From a virus (Duplodnaviria; Caudoviricetes): a DNA stretch of 64,000 bases. The translations under genes were made by a program, and so were the position numbers. Numbering within the stretch: position 1 is the first letter of the stretch; every line of letters begins with the position of its first letter. Shown in pieces: positions 518 through 25,481 of this stretch. The notes below the pieces were generated by a model, which saw nothing but the letters and a program-made list of their open reading frames with translations, searched no databases and was not told the DNA's origin. The stretch spans positions 6,834 to 70,833 of IMG/VR virus record IMGVR_UViG_3300025924_000004; one strand, given 5' to 3'.

Positions 518-1111
518 ATGAATCGCTATTTACAAAGATTTAAATCTACAGAAGAAAGGTTTACAGAAAAGTATGTTGTCAACCAAGAAACCTGCTGTTG
601 GGAATGGGTAGCTTGCAAGGATAAGGGTGGATATGGTAAATTCGATCACGTAAGGGCTCATAGGTTTTCTTACGAATTTTATGTCGGGGAAATACCGGAA
701 GGAAAATTTGTCTGTCATCATTGTGACAATCCATGTTGCGTTAATCCTGAACACCTTTGGGTAGGAACAGCGGAGGATAATTCATTAGATGCAAGGCTAA
801 AAGGAAGGATGCCTATAGCTGTTCACGGAAGTTCTGCCATGTATAATTTATACGGATGCAGATGTGATTTATGTGTTGAAGCTGAAAGTGAAAGAGGCAA
901 AAATTACCATAAAAATAACCCGGAAAAGGAAAAAGAGCGTAGTAAGAGATATTACGAGCAGAACAAAGATAAAGTAAATGCACGGGTAAAAAAATATAAG
1001 CAAGAAAACATAGAGTGGTATAGAAAATACGACAGGGAATATAAGGCTAAAAAACTAAAAGAAAAAAAAGCTAATCAAATTTCAAACCCAATTTCTCCCC
1101 CTTCTTCATAA
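518..1111 (+). CDS. HNH homing endonuclease
   Basis: AHRFSYE...[27 protein letters not shown] motif; basic C-terminal tail; opposite strand to neighbours. Confidence 0.9.
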
Positions 1112-2351
1112 CTTCTGTCATGCCCTCTATAGCGCCTAACTTTATATCTATCCTGTACCCTTTTACACCATCTGCGTATTTTTTTACCTTTTTGATACAT
1201 TCTTCGATAGAATCCCCGGTAGCTACGATAGCCCCTATTTCGGGCAATTCTCCCTCTTGTGGAACAATGTAATAAACATCGTTAATTTTAGTTAGGTTTC
1301 TAAACTTACACCACTTTCTGACCTGTGGTTCAATATATAAAGCCTGCCAGTGATTATTAGCCCAATCTGAATGAACCAGTACTTCCACCCCATACTTACA
1401 ATTATACTCCGGTTCTACCAATGCACCCATAGCTCCGTGCCATAATATTTCACCCAAATTGTCTATCATGGTTTGGAATAATTCTGACGGGGGGCTGCCG
1501 AATCTCATGCAGGCATCAGTCATGTACGATACCTTATCAGAACCGACCCTGATTTCAGTAGACATGAAATTTCTGCACTTATATTCACGCAAAGTGTCGG
1601 ATATTTTTTCAAGGTATTCAGTTATTATAGGGGACATATCTTTCAACTCTTTTACACAGGCAAAATAGCCCTCATCTTTTTGCTCATAACCAAAGAGTGA
1701 CTTTTCAGGGTAATTTCCGTCTATTGAAAAAATATCACAGCCGGTTTCAATTACGTCATCCCCGTCTATAGCATCTTCCACTATAAACTTAACTACCGAT
1801 TGACTTGCGCCCAAAGTAGTTTCAAGTTCATCTAAAATAGGCTCTGTTAGTAAATAGGTGGAAGCGTGAAAAGTTTCGAAGCAACCTCGGTATGTTGAAA
1901 TCTTAATATACTTGTTTTCATTCTTTTGAAGATACTTTCTTAAATTCTCCAATCCCTCTATTTCTCTAACGGGTTGTACAGGTAAACCAATCTTTTTAAG
2001 ATGCTTTTTAGTTTCCATCCTTAAAAGTTCTAATTCATCAGATGCCCTTGAACCCCACACACGTTTACCTAAACTTTCAAGATGTAGCTGAATGTCTGCA
2101 TCATAGCAATCAGGAAAAATAAATAAATCAATCTCATCAACGTAATCCCAAAAGTTATTTATTCGATACAACCCCTCATCTTCTAATCCATCACCGATAA
2201 GAACACCGCTATTCTTTGGAAAAGGCGAAACCCACGGCGTGAAATAATATACCTTCTGAAAGTACTTGGAAATAGTTATTCCAAACTCCAAAAATAACCC
2301 GTGGTCATATATACAAACCGTCTTTTCCTTTAAATTAACCTTTTCGTTCAT
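1071..2351 (-). CDS. ATP-grasp ligase, PurD (GAR synthetase)-like
   Basis: [32 protein letters not shown] and [11 protein letters not shown] mirror PurD motifs (K.FM...GIP, VVKADG, VIEEFLDG, EFN.RFGDP). Confidence 0.8.
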
Positions 2352-2354
2352 ATT

Positions 2355-2486
2355 TTATAGTAAATATATTTCATCTTCATCCAAATCATCAAATGTCCAA
2401 TCGTCGCTATCTCCTTCATCCCCTATTTTTTCTTCGGGGTCATCATAACCCTCTCCTTTAGGTAAACAGTCGCAAACGGGTATCAT
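2355..2486 (-). CDS. 43-aa highly acidic peptide, not in the ORF track (MIPVCDCLPKGEGYDDPEEKIGDEGDSDDWTFDDLDEDEIYLL)
   Basis: ATG overlaps the TGA of 2483..6616 (ATGA); TAA lies 3 nt before the ATP-grasp ATG; 17/43 residues are D/E. Confidence 0.75.
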   Translation of the reverse strand: MIPVCDCLPKGEGYDDPEEKIGDEGDSDDWTFDDLDEDEIYLL

Positions 2487-5400
2487 TTTCCTTTTTTTAC
2501 GTTTTGTCTTAATCCCGGTATACCTGTTTCCAAGTCTTCCTTAACGTATTTTAAAAGTCCGTGCTTCTTGTCAGGGGCACGTTTTTGTTGGTTTTTAGGA
2601 TTTATGCTAAAGGTTGATTTGTCTTTTGTATCTGTCACCGTTGCTAGCTGCTGAATGATACCCGGCTCAACTTCACCCTTAACTATATTTCCTACTAATT
2701 TATCAAATTTCCCCGTACTTCCCAAAGCACCTAAAATTTGGTCAGCACCGTTAGCTAAAGGTATGGCTTGTGCAAGACCGGAAGCAGTTGCTAAAGTTGC
2801 AGCCTCAATACCGTCCTGTTTTCTTCTGTGAGCGTCTAATACCTGCCTAAATGTTGCCCCGACCTGCATGGCTAAGAATATAGGGTGTTCTGTCATCCAT
2901 CGTGGTACATCTTGCCCATATACTCTTATTCCCCCCGCTTCCGGTTGGCCTTTCTTTTGCTTTCCGGGGCGATAAAAACCGCCAAAAGACTGCGGGTTAT
3001 AAAATCCTAATAGTAATGCCGCGCCACCTATAGAACCCTTTTTTAAATTATTAAGTATTTGTTCGGCTTCTTCCGGTTTGAGTTCACCCATGCCCTTGTG
3101 AAAGAAATAAGCTAACTTTTCTGCACCCGCACGTCTTGTCAGGTCAGACAGTCCTACACGGGCTAATTTAAGAGCAGATAATGAACCGAAAGCATATCGC
3201 GAACCCTCTAAGGCTATATTGGTAGGAACTTTAACGAAAGGCAGTAAAATACGAAATAGGGCTGCTGTGTTTTTAGCCCCCGTAGAACTACTGTTTTCTA
3301 AAGTACGCATAGCGGCCTCGTAAGCGGATGAAAGTTTATTGTCCCCCATAAATATAGCTCTGTTAGCATCTTTATAAGCATTAAGCCTGTTTTGGGCATC
3401 TATTGTAGGGTCAAGAGGGTCAAGTCCTTTCTTTGCCGCCGCTTCAAATCTTTTGGCGTAAGAGTATTCAAATATAGCTCTTTTGAACGGTGCTTTAATG
3501 GCAGAGTGCAGGTGTCCCCAAAAGTCTGCTGCTTCCGGTGGTAGTCTTCCTGCTACTTCCTTTCCATATAGTGCCGATATATCGCTTTGACCGCCTTTAG
3601 AAAGACTTAATTCATCAAATGAGTCTTTCATACCCTGCGTGGCTGCGGTAGCGTAGGAACGTGCTAATGCCTTTAAATTAGCTCCTGCTTCAAAGTCTGC
3701 TTTTGCGGCAAGACGTGGCAGTAATTTAGAATAACCTGAACCTAAAAGTTCTTCCGGTATTTTTAGGGAAAGAGTAGTTAATCCCGCTGCTGCCAGTTTA
3801 CCCAACACGGTTATAGAAGCAAGTTTAGCCCACCTACCCCACTTAACAGCAAAGTCAACTACTTTTCTGCCCACCTCTTTTTTGCTATTCGCTATTTCCG
3901 CTATCTGCTTATTTATCTTTGCTTGCTCCCGGTTGATGTCGGCACGTATTTTAAGGTAGTCGTTATCAACTTGTAGTTTACGTTGAGTTTTTTCTTCTAT
4001 GGTTCCTGTTTCATTTTGTGATTTAAGGTCAGCGAGTTTAGTTTCGGCACGTTTTTTTGCTGTTCCTAACCTACGCTCGTTATCTTCTTTAATTGCTTTA
4101 TCAAAACCGTCTTTGATAACTTCCTCTACATCTTTGTGATTTAATCCCTCGATGTGGTCTTTCAGGTCATTATAAACCTTATCCACCACTATTGATAAAG
4201 TATTAATACCATCGTGAACATAATTAATAGCCAGTTTGGTTAACGGCTCAATCATTTCAACTGGTATCTTATTTGCACCAATATCTTTTAGTGACTTGCG
4301 GGCAATAGTATGTAATGTAGCCAGTAGTTCAGCGCGTTCTTCCCTTAATTTTGTTCGGGTAACTTCTTTACGCGTCCTCCGTGCTATTTCACCTACCTTA
4401 TTGACAGAGCCTTGTTCCTGTAGTTTGCGTACCTGTTCTTCACGGTCGGATAGGTCACTTTCAAGTTGCTTTATCCTTGCGGTAGCATCTGTAAGTTGCT
4501 TTTCAAGTTCAGGACTTAACCCCTCACCACCGTTAGCTTGTTTGGCACGGTTTAAAATACGAACACGGGAGTAATCCCGTTTAAGCATTTCCTGCCTGTC
4601 ACGAAGCGTGATGCCAGCCCTGCGTCCTATTTCTTCGGTAGCGGCACGGTTTTCTTCGAGCAAGGCTTCGGTGCGCTCAAACTCTAAATGATTTTCAGCG
4701 GCATTTTCGGGGTGTTCATCGCTATCCTTTAATAGCGCATCCTGCCTGTTTTCAAGTTTTGCCTTGTGGTAACGTAAGGCGGCCTGCTGTTCCTCGGTAG
4801 CTACTACCTTTCCTTTGACGATATCTTTGGAAATTTTTTCGGGGTCAAGTTCACCGCTATCAATAAGGCGTTTGCCCTCTTTGTCAACATCGGCTAATTT
4901 CTTTTTCTGACGCGGCACATCTTCGCCACGTTCTGCTTCAACTTTGGAGTTAGTGATACCAGTTAACTTTTCCTCGCTTGACTGAACGCTACCGCTATCG
5001 CCTGTTTGTTGGCTTTTTTCTTCCCGAACTTTTTCTTCGTCTTTTGGAATGTTTTCCCCTTGTGGAACTCCGATATGTTGTTCGCTATCGTTTTCTTCGA
5101 TTTTCCCTTTTTCAACGGCATTGTCTTGTTCTTTTAAATCGGGTTCAGCCGATGCTTCCCCCGATTTGTTTACATCAGGTTTTTCTTGTGTCCGCCCTTC
5201 TTCGCTTTGGCTGCTTTGCCCTTCTTCGGGTCGTTCTGCCACTTGCTGTCCGGGTCGCCCATTTTCTTCTTGGTGATCTTCGCTTTTGGATTTGTCTTTT
5301 TCATTGCCTTTTTGTTTTAAAATTACGTTTTTAAGTTGATTGTTCAGTTCTTCCCTGTCTTTTTCTGCCTGTTCTAAATTTATTTCGTTTTCGGCATTTT

Positions 5401-6616
5401 TAACAGGGTCATCGGTTTTTTCCGAATACTTTTTAATATCATTATCCAAATCAGCTATTTTGCTGCCTAGGTCGTATTTTTCCTTTTCAGCATCATTAGC
5501 ATGTAGTAGTCCTATTGTGCCGAATAAGGGTGCTTGCTTTAATACAGCATCACTAATATCCTGAATAGCACCACCAATGGTCTGATTAAAAACTGGCCTA
5601 TCCGAAGCTAAGTCAACGCCACCTTTTAATACTGCCTGTCCTGCCTGCAAAGCAGAAAGGTCAACTGCTGCTTTTGATGTGGCTTCACCGTATTTAGGTA
5701 TCAGTTCGCCTAACTTATCAATGAATTTGTCTTTGGTGTCGTTTAAAACGGTTTTAAAGCCATTCTGTGTAAGATTTTTATCTACCGTTTCCTTTAAAGC
5801 ATCTGTAACAATGCCCTGTACGATTTTGTCCTGTACTTCTGCCGATGCTTTTCCGAAAAGACCTACGTTTTTATCAGCGAATATTAACCCGTTCAAAGCC
5901 CCCGTACCACCTATGTAGGCATCCCTGACTAAAGGATTTAATTTGTGGTCGGGGTCAACTTCGTCCATAGTTTCCTGACCCTGACCAAATCCTTGTAATG
6001 CGAACATGGTTTTTGGTAGTTCGGCATATTCGCCCCCAACTGCTGCCGGGGCGATATTAGCCAACATACCCAAAGTTTTGGTAGCACCCATGCCCAAAGA
6101 TTTAGTATCTTCAATCTGTGATTTTTGACCGGGAGTAACGCCTAAATCGGTAAATTTATCTACAGGTTTAAAAGCCTTGTCAGGTATAATTTGCGTATCG
6201 GATAAACTTGTGTTTAAGTGATTAAGTACCCATGCCCCGCCTTTAAGAACTTGCGTACCACCTTTTAAGGCTTGCGAGGTTACATAAGCACCTGATTTCA
6301 TCACCTTACCCAACGTACTATCCATAGCGTGTTGCTGCTTAATTTCATCGGGTGTAGCTTTCCTTAATAGGTCTTTTGGCTTTTGTGCTGCTATTTGTTT
6401 GTACTGGTCAACTTTTTCCCTTATTTCGGGCGGTAATTGCTGATAAAGGTTAAAATCTTGGGATGGGGAAGGCTTTGAGCCAACCGATGAGGCGGGTGTA
6501 GTATCTACTTTTTTTTTTGAATCTACCAAAACATCAGATGCAGGTGGTTTCCATGTACTCTTTTGTGGAGTAACAACCTCATCCGTAGCGGGTGGTGTCC
6601 AATTAAACTGCCCCAT
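2483..6616 (-). CDS. large internal virion (ejected/DNA-transfer) protein
   Basis: 1377 aa, helical and charged; N-terminal W.PPA.D repeats; third of three genes after the tail, as in podovirus ejectosomes. Confidence 0.7.
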   Translation of the reverse strand: MGQFNWTPPATDEVVTPQKSTWKPPASDVLVDSKKKVDTTPASSVGSKPSPSQDFNLYQQLPPEIREKVDQYKQIAAQKPKDLLRKATPDEIKQQHAMDSTLGKVMKSGAYVTSQALKGGTQVLKGGAWVLNHLNTSLSDTQIIPDKAFKPVDKFTDLGVTPGQKSQIEDTKSLGMGATKTLGMLANIAPAAVGGEYAELPKTMFALQGFGQGQETMDEVDPDHKLNPLVRDAYIGGTGALNGLIFADKNVGLFGKASAEVQDKIVQGIVTDALKETVDKNLTQNGFKTVLNDTKDKFIDKLGELIPKYGEATSKAAVDLSALQAGQAVLKGGVDLASDRPVFNQTIGGAIQDISDAVLKQAPLFGTIGLLHANDAEKEKYDLGSKIADLDNDIKKYSEKTDDPVKNAENEINLEQAEKDREELNNQLKNVILKQKGNEKDKSKSEDHQEENGRPGQQVAERPEEGQSSQSEEGRTQEKPDVNKSGEASAEPDLKEQDNAVEKGKIEENDSEQHIGVPQGENIPKDEEKVREEKSQQTGDSGSVQSSEEKLTGITNSKVEAERGEDVPRQKKKLADVDKEGKRLIDSGELDPEKISKDIVKGKVVATEEQQAALRYHKAKLENRQDALLKDSDEHPENAAENHLEFERTEALLEENRAATEEIGRRAGITLRDRQEMLKRDYSRVRILNRAKQANGGEGLSPELEKQLTDATARIKQLESDLSDREEQVRKLQEQGSVNKVGEIARRTRKEVTRTKLREERAELLATLHTIARKSLKDIGANKIPVEMIEPLTKLAINYVHDGINTLSIVVDKVYNDLKDHIEGLNHKDVEEVIKDGFDKAIKEDNERRLGTAKKRAETKLADLKSQNETGTIEEKTQRKLQVDNDYLKIRADINREQAKINKQIAEIANSKKEVGRKVVDFAVKWGRWAKLASITVLGKLAAAGLTTLSLKIPEELLGSGYSKLLPRLAAKADFEAGANLKALARSYATAATQGMKDSFDELSLSKGGQSDISALYGKEVAGRLPPEAADFWGHLHSAIKAPFKRAIFEYSYAKRFEAAAKKGLDPLDPTIDAQNRLNAYKDANRAIFMGDNKLSSAYEAAMRTLENSSSTGAKNTAALFRILLPFVKVPTNIALEGSRYAFGSLSALKLARVGLSDLTRRAGAEKLAYFFHKGMGELKPEEAEQILNNLKKGSIGGAALLLGFYNPQSFGGFYRPGKQKKGQPEAGGIRVYGQDVPRWMTEHPIFLAMQVGATFRQVLDAHRRKQDGIEAATLATASGLAQAIPLANGADQILGALGSTGKFDKLVGNIVKGEVEPGIIQQLATVTDTKDKSTFSINPKNQQKRAPDKKHGLLKYVKEDLETGIPGLRQNVKKGK

Positions 6617-22352: not shown

Positions 22353-25300
22353 CTAAGCTGTTCTTTTACCATATTTTGCTCTAAGGTCATATATCCTGTA
22401 CATTTGAACGGTATCTTCATCATGAACCATTTGACGGTGCTTGTCCTTCAACCCCATGAGTGCGTATCCAAAGGACATGCAAGCATCGTACAAAGTACGT
22501 TCTTTAACGTTAAATCCGAACATATCTCTTAATACTCTTAAATACCAAATTTTCCCTACGTTGGCAGATGCGTACTCAATCATTTCCGTTAAATGTTGTT
22601 CCCTACCCTCTCCATCCTGCGCGGCAATACCGTAGCGCTCCTCACCTGTTATTTTTAAATTGGTTTTAACACAGTACCCTAATAATTTTTTATCTAAAGC
22701 ATAGTCATACCACGTTATAGGGGAGCGTTCTATAAGTGCTTTTATACCGCAATACCGTAAACAAAGAAAGAGTTGTTCATGCATAAATGCTACTGAACTT
22801 GGCCTGCCTATACCAAGTCCCGCTATCATACCTGAATTATCGGGGTCTAAAGCATTGTACCGCTTAAAAATACAAATAGAGGCGTCAGAGCCTTTCTCTG
22901 CGGTAGTTTCGGAGTTGTTGATTAAGTCAGCGCCAGCTACACCCCAATCGGTATTTGTGGGTGTCCTGTGACCGCCTATCCAAGTGTATTTGTTAGCATC
23001 TTTTTGTTCGGGTAAATCAAGAAAGTACCACATAAATTCAGGACTTTCATTTGGCGTTCCCAATTCAGCATCTTCAAAATAAGCATCACCATTTGAACTT
23101 GCCCTGAATAAACCTTTTCGATATAGCGAAGCGTATTCTAATTTTGCTTCTACCCGTTCAACTTGGTCATTCAAGTCTTTTATGTTAAAATAACAGGAAT
23201 TATTAGCGCCCCTGAAAACTTCTTCGGGTGTAAAGGGAAACATTCGTATTTCTTCCTGTAGCTTTTCGGGGTCATCAGCTTTTAATCTTCGCTGTAACTC
23301 ACAGTATGCTTTGCACCCCATGTATGGGTCAAGCGTATAGGGGTCGTTTTTCAACCATTCTGTCTGCGCCTCTGTCGGGGTGTCCCAAACCGAATTTCCA
23401 AACTTATCAACCCATCCCAAATCCCTGCCACCCATGTAGCCGGGGATGAAATATTGAATGAGTTTATTTTTAGTTTGCCCCAATTCATCTAGGTCGTCCT
23501 GATCTGAACCATCCCAAACGATTTTATATCGTGTACCACCCTTATCTCCTTTGTTTACAGTAGTGATGCAGACTATTCGCCCCATTTCCTCACCTGCTGT
23601 AATAATATTGGATGCAATCTCCAAATATTCATCTATGGGTACATCTGTAGGCCATTTACCACAATTCATAGTTATAGTAAAGTCTTCTAATATTAACCTC
23701 CTATCTTCATCGCAATCCGCCTTTACCTGTATACCAATATACTGACCTATACCTAATTTACTTATTTCAATTCTATTCCTTCTAAAAGCATACTGCTTTT
23801 CATACTTATTAAAATTTTTCCTTTTTACAATGGTTGGTATTGTTGATAAGTCACCGCTAATGGATAGTTTCCATGTATCCGAACCAAAATTTGATTTAGC
23901 GTACTTTATATTGGATACGGAAAAACCTAAACTTTTAGCCAAAAATGAAATATCTTCTATTATACCCATTTTTGACATAGCAAAAGTTATTGAACCGTGT
24001 CGTTTGCCTTTAGAGGCGTGCCCATCCGTATCTATTAATCCGGCAAGTAGTTTAAGCCTATTTTCTCGTGAATTGTGTAAATAATCGGTTGGTATCCTTT
24101 TGTTTTTATAAACGCCAAGTCGTTTAAGTTCTGTTGTTAAGTAATTAACACTACCATGCTTTTTATTAAGATTATATATAACCCACACGGCTTTTTTACA
24201 GTAACTTATTGGATTAACTGTTGTTATATATCCCTTTTGCTGACCGTAATTAACAAGATGTGATAACAATTCAGGCTCATCAACAAAATTACATATAAAA
24301 GATAGCCCAGTATACCTGCCATCCCCTATCCACGCTCCAAAAATATACGGGTCAATAAGCATTTCTTTTTCAGGAAAAACTAAACCCAAACTTCTTAATC
24401 CATGTGTAGTTCTTTTTCTATACTTTCCTAATTTTATAAACTGTTCTGGTGTATAATACTTTATTCCGTCATCTTTTATACTGTCAACCTTACATCTTTG
24501 CTCTAAGTACAATCTATGCCTAGAGGAAACTATATAATCTTTTGAATATGGTTGATGAATACGATACATTTCATCATAACCTTCAAATTTTTGCATAACA
24601 GGTAATAATTTACCTCCTTCAACATAAACTAAGTCACCTATTTTAATATCTTTTATTGGTCTAAAAATATATCCCTCACAAAGTATTTTAGTGTCGGGGT
24701 GTAGACATTCATCCAGTAGCAAAAACCATAGTCCGTCACCGTCAAATACGTTTGATTTTGGTGCGCGCCACTCTATCCTATTGTTTAATCCGTCCTTACT
24801 TGCGCCCGTGGCTTGGTCTTTGGTTATTTTACCTGCCTGCTTAGTAATATGCAGCGTTGTTTTTGGGTCGTCTGTTCCGCTGATACGAGGCTTTAAGAAG
24901 TTAGGAAGTCGTGAATACCCATTAACAAGCATTAATTGAAATATCTTTTCAGCGTCTTTAGCAGCCATTGAAGTAATACCTTCTTCAATATTTTGCTTAA
25001 TAAGACCAAATTGAAGCATAATAGACATGCACATGGTGGAAACGTGCTTACGCCTACCCTTCATGGTATTTCCACCCCTGCATTTATGATTTTTAAAAAA
25101 CACATGCTCCATGAAGTACATGAAGCTGATGCAGGTATCTTTAAACTTAGGGTAAAACCCTTCTTTGGTAACAAACCATTGAAAATAGAAATATGCGAAC
25201 AGGTTTAAATAAACGGGTCTTCCTTCTATCATTACCCATTCACCATGCAAAATCCTGTCTATTTCGTCGTAATACCATTCAAGCTGACCGGGTGATGGTT

Positions 25301-25481
25301 TATCCCACCACATTGCGCCCTTTTTGGGGTCGTCATTCCAATTCCACTGCTTGTATTCAGTATGCCGCGTCCATACTTGGTCTTGAAGTTTAAGGTGGCT
25401 ACCTCTTATTTTTTTTAAGGGGGGTATTTCAGGTGTTTCGTACCAAGTGGATTTCCATAAATTAAACCTTTGTGTTGCCAT
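22353..25481 (-). CDS. terL: terminase large subunit with intein
   Basis: MKGRRKHVS (Walker A region), LLLDE/CGKW (Walker B, split by the intein), nuclease domain ending YDACMSFG. Confidence 0.9.
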   Translation of the reverse strand: MATQRFNLWKSTWYETPEIPPLKKIRGSHLKLQDQVWTRHTEYKQWNWNDDPKKGAMWWDKPSPGQLEWYYDEIDRILHGEWVMIEGRPVYLNLFAYFYFQWFVTKEGFYPKFKDTCISFMYFMEHVFFKNHKCRGGNTMKGRRKHVSTMCMSIMLQFGLIKQNIEEGITSMAAKDAEKIFQLMLVNGYSRLPNFLKPRISGTDDPKTTLHITKQAGKITKDQATGASKDGLNNRIEWRAPKSNVFDGDGLWFLLLDECLHPDTKILCEGYIFRPIKDIKIGDLVYVEGGKLLPVMQKFEGYDEMYRIHQPYSKDYIVSSRHRLYLEQRCKVDSIKDDGIKYYTPEQFIKLGKYRKRTTHGLRSLGLVFPEKEMLIDPYIFGAWIGDGRYTGLSFICNFVDEPELLSHLVNYGQQKGYITTVNPISYCKKAVWVIYNLNKKHGSVNYLTTELKRLGVYKNKRIPTDYLHNSRENRLKLLAGLIDTDGHASKGKRHGSITFAMSKMGIIEDISFLAKSLGFSVSNIKYAKSNFGSDTWKLSISGDLSTIPTIVKRKNFNKYEKQYAFRRNRIEISKLGIGQYIGIQVKADCDEDRRLILEDFTITMNCGKWPTDVPIDEYLEIASNIITAGEEMGRIVCITTVNKGDKGGTRYKIVWDGSDQDDLDELGQTKNKLIQYFIPGYMGGRDLGWVDKFGNSVWDTPTEAQTEWLKNDPYTLDPYMGCKAYCELQRRLKADDPEKLQEEIRMFPFTPEEVFRGANNSCYFNIKDLNDQVERVEAKLEYASLYRKGLFRASSNGDAYFEDAELGTPNESPEFMWYFLDLPEQKDANKYTWIGGHRTPTNTDWGVAGADLINNSETTAEKGSDASICIFKRYNALDPDNSGMIAGLGIGRPSSVAFMHEQLFLCLRYCGIKALIERSPITWYDYALDKKLLGYCVKTNLKITGEERYGIAAQDGEGREQHLTEMIEYASANVGKIWYLRVLRDMFGFNVKERTLYDACMSFGYALMGLKDKHRQMVHDEDTVQMYRIYDLRAKYGKRTA
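23664..24707 (-). mobile_element. intein with LAGLIDADG homing endonuclease (348 aa)
   Basis: starts CLHPDT, ends ITMN before +1 Cys; FGAWIGDG and LAGLIDTDG motifs. Confidence 0.9.

Follow-up and report, generated by a model that had tools for sequence, protein, structure and literature searches.

The analyzed stretch of DNA (64,000 nt, hereafter the window) comprises bases 6834–70833 of a complete, 70,833-bp virus record (IMG/VR IMGVR_UViG_3300025924_000004) with direct terminal repeats. Here, a late operon on the minus strand closes with open reading frames (ORFs) of 1377, 43, and 426 amino acids (aa), in this order; the short one encodes an acidic mini-protein, and the last one a predicted ATP-grasp carboxylate–amine ligase with the fold of PurD. 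Pairs of such ligases and acidic peptides are seen in many uncultured phages, pointing to an uncharacterized amide-forming module. The features of the locus are as follows.

2483..6616, minus strand: ORF for a 1377-aa protein, function not assigned; its stop overlaps the ATG of the 43-aa ORF

2355..2486, minus strand: 43-aa acidic mini-protein (P0002), with a conserved N-terminal half containing CxC and a variable acidic tail with a DDW core

1071..2351, minus strand: predicted 426-aa PurD-fold ATP-grasp carboxylate–amine ligase (P0001), the last gene of the late operon

518..1111, plus strand: HNH endonuclease (Pfam HNH_3, 2.5e-12; PHROG endonuclease), convergent

The start codon of the 43-aa ORF overlaps the TGA stop of the 1377-aa gene (ATGA), and 3 nt separate its own TAA from the ATG of the 426-aa gene; hence, the three genes are spaced as for translational coupling, as suggested by an earlier reading of this DNA made from the sequence only. 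The ORF coordinates, lengths, and translations of that reading were all reproduced exactly, as was the composition of the peptide, with 17 Asp/Glu residues and a CxC motif near the N-terminus; the peptide has two Lys/Arg residues. A promoter and terminator scan of positions 1071–2486 yielded nothing notable.

The 43-aa ORF is a real gene under purifying selection at the protein level. It is the sole ORF of its kind on either strand of the 64 kb (screened for 22–70 aa, at least 30% Asp/Glu, and an Asp/Glu excess of at least 7). The window-type peptide is known in four versions: that of the window; P0277 from locus L090, a 43-aa relative with 70% identity, found by database search; and the versions from L004/L005 (37 aa) and L092 (36 aa), found in context look-ups of ligase homologues. 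All four are called as genes in the source collections and lie directly upstream of the ligase gene, and this adjacency is kept even where the ligase and the giant 1377-aa protein have diverged far more than the peptide (47 and 24% identity, respectively, between the window and L090). Comparison of the window and L090 peptides shows nine synonymous and no non-synonymous differences in codons 1–24, and 13 non-synonymous changes with acidity retained in the last 19 codons, while the 132 nt upstream are unrelated and cannot be aligned (32% identity). The conserved residues within unrelated flanking DNA therefore reflect selection on the protein and not a recent exchange of DNA, and the earlier claim of a real and conserved small ORF stands.

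Structural comparison places the 426-aa protein next to PurD. Its AlphaFold2 model, built from an alignment of 47 sequences (predicted local distance difference test score, pLDDT, 95.1; predicted template-modeling score, pTM, 0.93), has the four-domain PurD-type ATP-grasp architecture. The best Foldseek matches are glycinamide ribonucleotide (GAR) synthetases, over the full length and at 12–14% identity, with 2yw2_A at the top (E 1e-19, template-modeling (TM) score 0.74); next come biotin carboxylases, PurT, PurK, and L-amino-acid ligases. Similarly, the five top matches of the family profile (47 members) among PDB sequences are all PurD, the best with E 2.8e-6. The protein itself has no match in Pfam, PHROG, NCBIfam, or PDB sequences, and the Pfam GARS_N/A/C and NCBIfam PurD (TIGR00877) models do not match it even at E = 1. 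Hence, the label of a PurD-like ATP-grasp protein, given by the sequence-only reading, is upheld by the fold and by none of the family models. In the ESM Atlas the protein belongs to a cluster that is 96% viral, with GAR synthetases as the nearest cellular structural neighbors, and in BFVD no close viral structure was found (TM at most 0.47).

Only two segments could be aligned with PurD by sequence. Family motif D-x-x-x-R-x-G-S-P-P aligns with E-F-N-V-R-L-G-D-P-E of PurD, and the PurD segments RxGDPE and GGRVL are replaced by RxGSPP and eIGAVV. Asp279 and Arg283 of the window protein align with Glu and Arg of the PurD segment LEFNVRLGDPE, these being the Mg-binding Glu and the conserved Arg of PurD; Asn of this segment is not retained (Cys281). 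The family N-terminus reads V-x-D-x-G-x-F; the N-terminal substrate-site motif of PurD is GGREHA. Invariant in the family are Lys150, Arg155, Glu202, Asp206, Glu223, Lys225, Glu266, Arg268, and Arg283, with Asp279 joining Lys150, Glu202, Asp206, Glu266, and Arg283 in a set that is invariant or nearly so; these conserved charged residues may fit an active ATP-grasp enzyme. Inteins, which usually occupy conserved sites of functional enzymes, are present in several family members at two different sites. Judging from sequence and model, the 426-aa protein is probably an active carboxylate–amine ligase with a substrate different from that of PurD; it would be derived from PurD or share a common ancestor with it, and presumably no longer makes GAR.

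As to the inteins themselves, homologues of ~760–790 aa (P0129, P0144, P0176, P0203, P0227, and P0259) carry them, with LAGLIDADG or Hint matches, near the position of residue 282 of the window protein, and the ligase of L090 (3036–4514) has one after residue ~226; hence, there are at least two insertion sites in the family.

A word-indexed search yields 499 relatives of the 426-aa protein, and an exhaustive search at least 1,232 representative clusters at 50% identity, nearly all of 415–450 aa. Among 50,697 phage records, relatives are found in two, both of hot-spring Aquificae viruses. By these searches the family appears virus-specific, almost exclusively viral. Some database records name relatives "phosphoribosylamine-glycine ligase" or "phosphoribosylaminoimidazole carboxylase"; the examined neighbors of the ligase genes are late virion or packaging modules.

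We collected 91 ligase loci, using the tight ligase alignment A2 for the locus scan, and classified the neighbors. Three partners recur: a SpeD-type pyruvoyl decarboxylase; a small protein named here after its PYRxxH motif; and short acidic peptides. Only the peptide is present in the window. The commonest partner is the decarboxylase, a homologue of AdoMet_dc (SpeD class 1b) of 115–145 aa seen in 47 of the 91 loci, where its gene mostly touches or overlaps the beginning of the ligase gene (two members match Pfam PF02675, with E 6.5e-17 and 6.4e-14); no variation is seen at the catalytic Cys or at the processing Ser, which lies within T-E-S-F. This partner had been overlooked by the sequence-only reading; PF02675 has no match anywhere in the complete 70.8-kb genome of the window phage, the positive controls being detected. 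In 55 distinct well-flanked loci, the peptide is seen in 24, the decarboxylase in 24, the PYRxxH protein in 15, and at least one of the three in 47. In pyroviruses, ORFs upstream of the ligase are of neither the decarboxylase nor the PYRxxH type, and no acidic mini-ORF was found. One ligase clade (L077, L086, L087, and L089) has, in the place of the acidic peptide, 50–89-aa ORFs that end 0–4 nt before the ligase and encode very basic mini-proteins sharing a core of the K-Q-A-V-A-I-A-Y type.

Acidic mini-ORFs (25–60 aa, at least 33% Asp/Glu, net charge –8 or lower) were counted in 78 distinct loci (833 kb): 27 occur on the ligase strand, none on the opposite strand, and none in shuffled sequences. 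Many share the N-terminal M-x-P-E/D-D-E and the core D-P-D-E-W-R-D. The peptide abuts the ligase in the window, L004/L005, L092, L090, the L009 group, L025/L029, L088, L008, and L023, and lies downstream of it in L042; L018 and L021 show a contiguous order of peptide, decarboxylase, and ligase. In the large DPDEWRD clade, a TerL-sized protein (~490–545 aa) is followed by the peptide, then by the decarboxylase and ligase 0.6–3 kb further on, and then by a portal-sized protein; PHROG confirms TerL and portal in L088 only, a locus with the peptide directly next to the ligase. When mapped on a quick maximum-likelihood tree of 79 ligases, adjacency of the peptide requires at least six changes across well-supported branches. 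Acidic mini-proteins are thus repeatedly encoded next to this type of ligase, in several lineages, which is a point in favor of the sequence-only reading.

The association was also assessed in reverse, by scanning IMG/VR with the back-translated DPDEWRD core motif alone. Of the 43 sites, ten fall in ORFs for small acidic proteins; one of these ORFs, of 15 aa, is spurious, and the other nine are accompanied by a ligase on the same strand at a distance of 373–1382 nt. Among motif sites inside other proteins, a ligase is nearby in none but L097, which is a peptide with a mis-called start and a ligase ~3 kb away. With a ligase near all nine genuine ORFs, the linkage of the DPDEWRD peptides to this ligase is specific. 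Homology between the window-type and DPDEWRD-type peptides is not demonstrable (hhalign of A3 vs. A8, probability 0.9%), and the window peptide is not matched at E 1e-3 by the hidden Markov model of the DPDEWRD family; the two types are alike only in size, charge, DDW core, and position.

The PYRxxH protein (114–158 aa) is present in 21 of the 91 loci and has invariant His49, Glu53, Asp71, Glu88-Pro-Gly, Pro96-Tyr, His101, and Glu108. A Foldseek search with its model (pLDDT 93) gave nothing significant. Exhaustive structural comparison gave weak matches (Z 4–5), almost all of them zincin-fold metallohydrolases, including CapP, PprI, minigluzincins, YbeY, and SPRTN. The protein may therefore be a zincin-like, small metal-dependent hydrolase, the modeled structure providing a lead rather than proof. 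In P0230, the PYRxxH domain is fused to the C-terminus of the ligase; in L078 (6298–7002) and L069 (7307–7996), downstream of the ligase, it is joined with a sulfhydryl-oxidase domain of the Erv1/Alr type (Pfam 1.5e-7). No PYRxxH homologue was found in the complete genome of the window phage.

Sister taxa in the well-supported five-member ligase clade of the window alternate between the peptide and the PYRxxH protein: the former is encoded by L092 and the latter by L091, and, likewise, the latter by L006 and the former by the window and L005. Both occur together in two of the 55 well-flanked loci (Fisher p 0.006, uncorrected for phylogeny). The slot may hold functionally alternative partners, or it may be a recombination hot spot. 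The 43-aa peptide was also considered as a truncated remnant of the 119–141-aa PYRxxH protein (L006, L007, and L091) and rejected, the hhalign probability being 0.1%.

Extensions of the ligase itself are HAD or acylphosphatase domains, inteins, or the PYRxxH domain, the latter being C-terminal and the HAD phosphatase N-terminal. The two phosphatase fusions fit small-molecule or acyl-phosphate chemistry. The HAD domain, with its DxDGT motif, is seen in P0151, P0156, P0158, P0165, P0207, and P0221 (a Pfam match was obtained for P0151, and none for P0156), and the acylphosphatase domain in P0267 (Pfam 6e-14). A proposed identity of the ~125-aa N-terminal extensions with the upstream 119–141-aa gene was rejected, these extensions being the HAD phosphatases.

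Upstream of the three genes, the window encodes a portal (phrog_6547), a large terminase, virion structural proteins, and a tail-fiber-like protein. The portal is ~25% identical to those of Cellulophaga phi38:1/phi40:1 and of Flavobacterium and Maribacter podoviruses; by this resemblance, the window phage classifies as a distant podovirus of the Bacteroidota type. The large terminase ORF (22353–25481, minus strand) is unusually long, with 1042 aa or about twice the usual size. PHROG matches cover two stretches, residues 259–544 and 607–1015, while the N-terminal part of ~250 aa and the gap between the stretches have no match; an extra domain or an insertion could be present.

The 1377-aa protein has no family match in Pfam, PHROG, or NCBIfam and no relative in cultured phages (phage records). 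The sequence-only reading had called it an ejected protein, and the operon an ejectosome; both names are putative, and only size and position speak for the former. Homologues of the 1377-aa protein are encoded ahead of the slot for the peptide or PYRxxH protein in L009 and L091 (41 and 43% identity, respectively) and, at 24–28% identity, in L004, L006, L092, and L090. In L004 (1–912) and L005 (185–1069), the phage contig contains an IS1595-family transposase gene, a few kb ahead of the genes for the giant protein, the peptide, and the ligase. On the other side of the locus, the HNH gene marks the end of the late operon and is retained at the same position in the distant relative L009; in the window, the 3′ coding ends of the HNH and ligase genes overlap by 41 nt.

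The interpretation we prefer, judging its chances to be about even, is that of an amide-forming module in which an active ATP-grasp ligase other than PurD, as predicted from sequences and models, works with a genuine acidic mini-protein. The ligase would activate a carboxylate as an acyl-phosphate for coupling to an amine. The adjacent SpeD-type pyruvoyl decarboxylase of most relatives would probably supply this amine, agmatine- or putrescine-like in nature, and the window phage, having no decarboxylase gene, would draw on an amine of its host. The mini-protein would be the carboxylate-bearing substrate or carrier, or else a docking partner delivering the ligase to its target; the product would have its role in assembling the virion, packaging the DNA, or ejection. 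What we infer here is that the ligase is catalytically active, which acid and amine it uses, and that the peptide is covalently modified, the last being plausible. A more specific scenario, improbable in its full form, is that in many phage lineages a PurD-derived ligase puts an agmatine- or polyamine-like amine, made by the decarboxylase or taken from the host, on carboxylates of the acidic mini-protein; the resulting carrier-bound or charge-reversed product would serve packaging or ejection, and the zincin-like hydrolase would be an alternative or releasing component.

Several observations weigh against a peptide working with the ligase. The L090 peptide is conserved far better than the ligase, which counts against tight co-evolution. 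The four window-type peptides end differently at the C-terminus, and so do the DPDEWRD peptides. In the DPDEWRD clade, the peptide is 0.4–3 kb away from the ligase, with other genes between them, and shared synteny could explain a part of the association; moreover, the reverse scan does not strictly cover the window-type peptide, given that its homology to the DPDEWRD family is not demonstrable. About 15% of the well-flanked loci have none of the three partners. Two close relatives, with ligase identities of 70% (L006) and 64% (L091), have a PYRxxH protein of 119–122 aa instead of the peptide; hence, retention of the small ORF in relatives, on which the sequence-only reading depended, is seen in part, with the ORF present in L090, L004/L005, and L092 and absent from L006 and L091. 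Finally, no fusion of the peptide with the ligase was found among N- and C-terminal extensions or longer proteins. The peptide-ligation module as first proposed thus has in its favor a real small gene, a PurD-fold ligase that is not an ordinary purD, tight gene spacing, and recurrent pairing, and against it the lack of a fusion, of a conserved C-terminal residue, and of a conserved Thr/Ser/Lys.

Some of these observations would be expected if the mini-protein were independent of the ligase, i.e., a virion-associated or co-injected acidic protein (a DNA mimic, an anti-defense factor, or an internal or scaffold-type protein) that is a mere neighbor, both genes being small accessory ones of one late module. 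The position of its gene after that of a very large protein at the end of a virion operon, or after a TerL-sized protein and not abutting the ligase in the DPDEWRD clade, is consistent with this, as are the missing fusion and the identities between the window and L090 (70% for the peptide vs. 47% for the ligase and 24% for the giant protein). However, all nine peptides found by the motif have a same-strand ligase nearby; the peptides abut ligases at no fewer than six separate positions of the tree, with differing flanking genes; and the peptide alternates in one slot with the PYRxxH protein, itself fused to a ligase in P0230, the two being together in just two of 55 loci. PADLOC gave no matches either, which is weak evidence, its library modeling defense-system proteins and not anti-defense factors. 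On balance, we consider independence somewhat unlikely. The same slot alternation and near mutual exclusivity, together with the PYRxxH domain on the ligase C-terminus, would suit a peptide that regulates the ligase non-covalently or serves it as a chaperone or adaptor, for example by occupying or gating its active site with the acidic tail or by tethering it to a basic part of the virion or portal, and that is functionally interchangeable with the PYRxxH protein. A strongly conserved N-terminal half with a tail that varies and yet stays acidic also agrees with such a role. On the other hand, the PYRxxH protein is hydrolase-like (invariant His, Glu, Asp, His, and Glu; Z 4–5), its equivalence to a disordered-looking peptide of 43 aa is not obvious, and the two lack profile similarity; this role is, in our view, doubtful.

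By far the least probable reading is that the 426-aa protein is an ordinary GAR synthetase and its gene an auxiliary one of purine biosynthesis, which we regard as very hard to sustain. PurD does give the best fold and profile matches, and some database records bear purine-enzyme names. Nevertheless, the dedicated GARS and PurD models fail even at E = 1, identity to PurD is 12–14%, and the RxGDPE and GGRVL segments are altered to RxGSPP and eIGAVV; furthermore, the position among late virion genes is constant, the partners are the decarboxylase, the peptide, and the PYRxxH protein, and the family is 96% viral.

The ligase family is large, nearly all viral, and absent from nearly all cultured phages, and where database labels are given, they are those of a purine enzyme. 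Since the ligase is always found among virion or packaging genes, its target is probably a component required for building or firing the particle. The acidic partner constrained by selection is a concrete candidate substrate, and the decarboxylase a would-be source of the amine. If the product is indeed a polyamine-conjugated peptide or protein, it would represent a new kind of virion chemistry, and a systematic error in virome annotation, the reading of "purD" as an auxiliary metabolic gene, would be corrected.

Among known systems, LysW/LysX (ArgW/ArgX) resembles the module in having a small acidic protein with N-terminal cysteines and an acidic Trp motif, encoded beside an ATP-grasp gene. 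There, the amide is formed on the carboxylate of the carrier; LysX is an ATP-grasp enzyme of the RimK type, and LysW carries a complete zinc ribbon and an EDWGE motif with an invariant Glu at the C-terminus. The ligase considered here, in contrast, is of the PurD type with no RimK family match, and the window peptide has a single CxC, with C-termini varying between versions; none of the LysZ/Y/J/K enzymes is among the examined neighbors. RimK/S6 and the TTL/TTLL ligases of tubulin tails are similar in that an ATP-grasp enzyme acts on an acidic tail, and the possible zincin-like hydrolase in the same module, a weak structural lead, recalls the tubulin-tail cycles of ligase and metallo-carboxypeptidase; however, these enzymes belong to another ATP-grasp clade, and the target here would be a free-standing mini-protein. 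Graspetides of the microviridin type have a core in which conserved Thr/Ser/Lys and Asp/Glu residues serve macrocyclization through side chains; they differ in that the peptides here have no conserved Thr/Ser/Lys column and the ligase is of the PurD type, not MdnB/C. Hence, the parallels with LysW/LysX and graspetides drawn by the sequence-only reading do not extend to the defining features (ligase type, C-terminal residue, Thr/Ser/Lys), and LysW/LysX, RimK/S6, and graspetides are to be seen as analogies in logic only, each differing in at least one tested defining feature.

Among phage systems, the LUZ24-type amidoligase module, composed of an ATP-grasp protein, a glutamine synthetase (GS)-like amidoligase, GATase, and GGCT (PMC3890496), similarly contains a phage ATP-grasp protein predicted to function in peptide or amide modification; it differs in that its ATP-grasp protein has 291 aa, belongs to an early-gene module with other partners, and is not found by tblastn with P0001. 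Phage SpeD homologues have been described as arginine or ornithine decarboxylases, SpeDA/SpeDC (PMC9992855, PMC10407285), and neither paper appears to mention an ATP-grasp, PurD, or ligase partner. The commonest partner of the ligase family is likewise a class-1b AdoMet_dc homologue with Ser and Cys conserved, although the window genome lacks it. The closest comparison is with PurD itself (PDB 2yw2, 1gso, and 2qk4), given the same four-domain ATP-grasp architecture, weak but specific profile similarity, and the acidic residue and Arg kept in the segment aligned to LEFNVRLGDPE. In contrast to PurD, the ligase has altered substrate motifs, is 12–14% identical, and fails all curated PurD models; it is virus-specific and is encoded in virion modules, where its partners, among the examined neighbors, are the decarboxylase, the acidic peptide, or the PYRxxH protein rather than purine genes.

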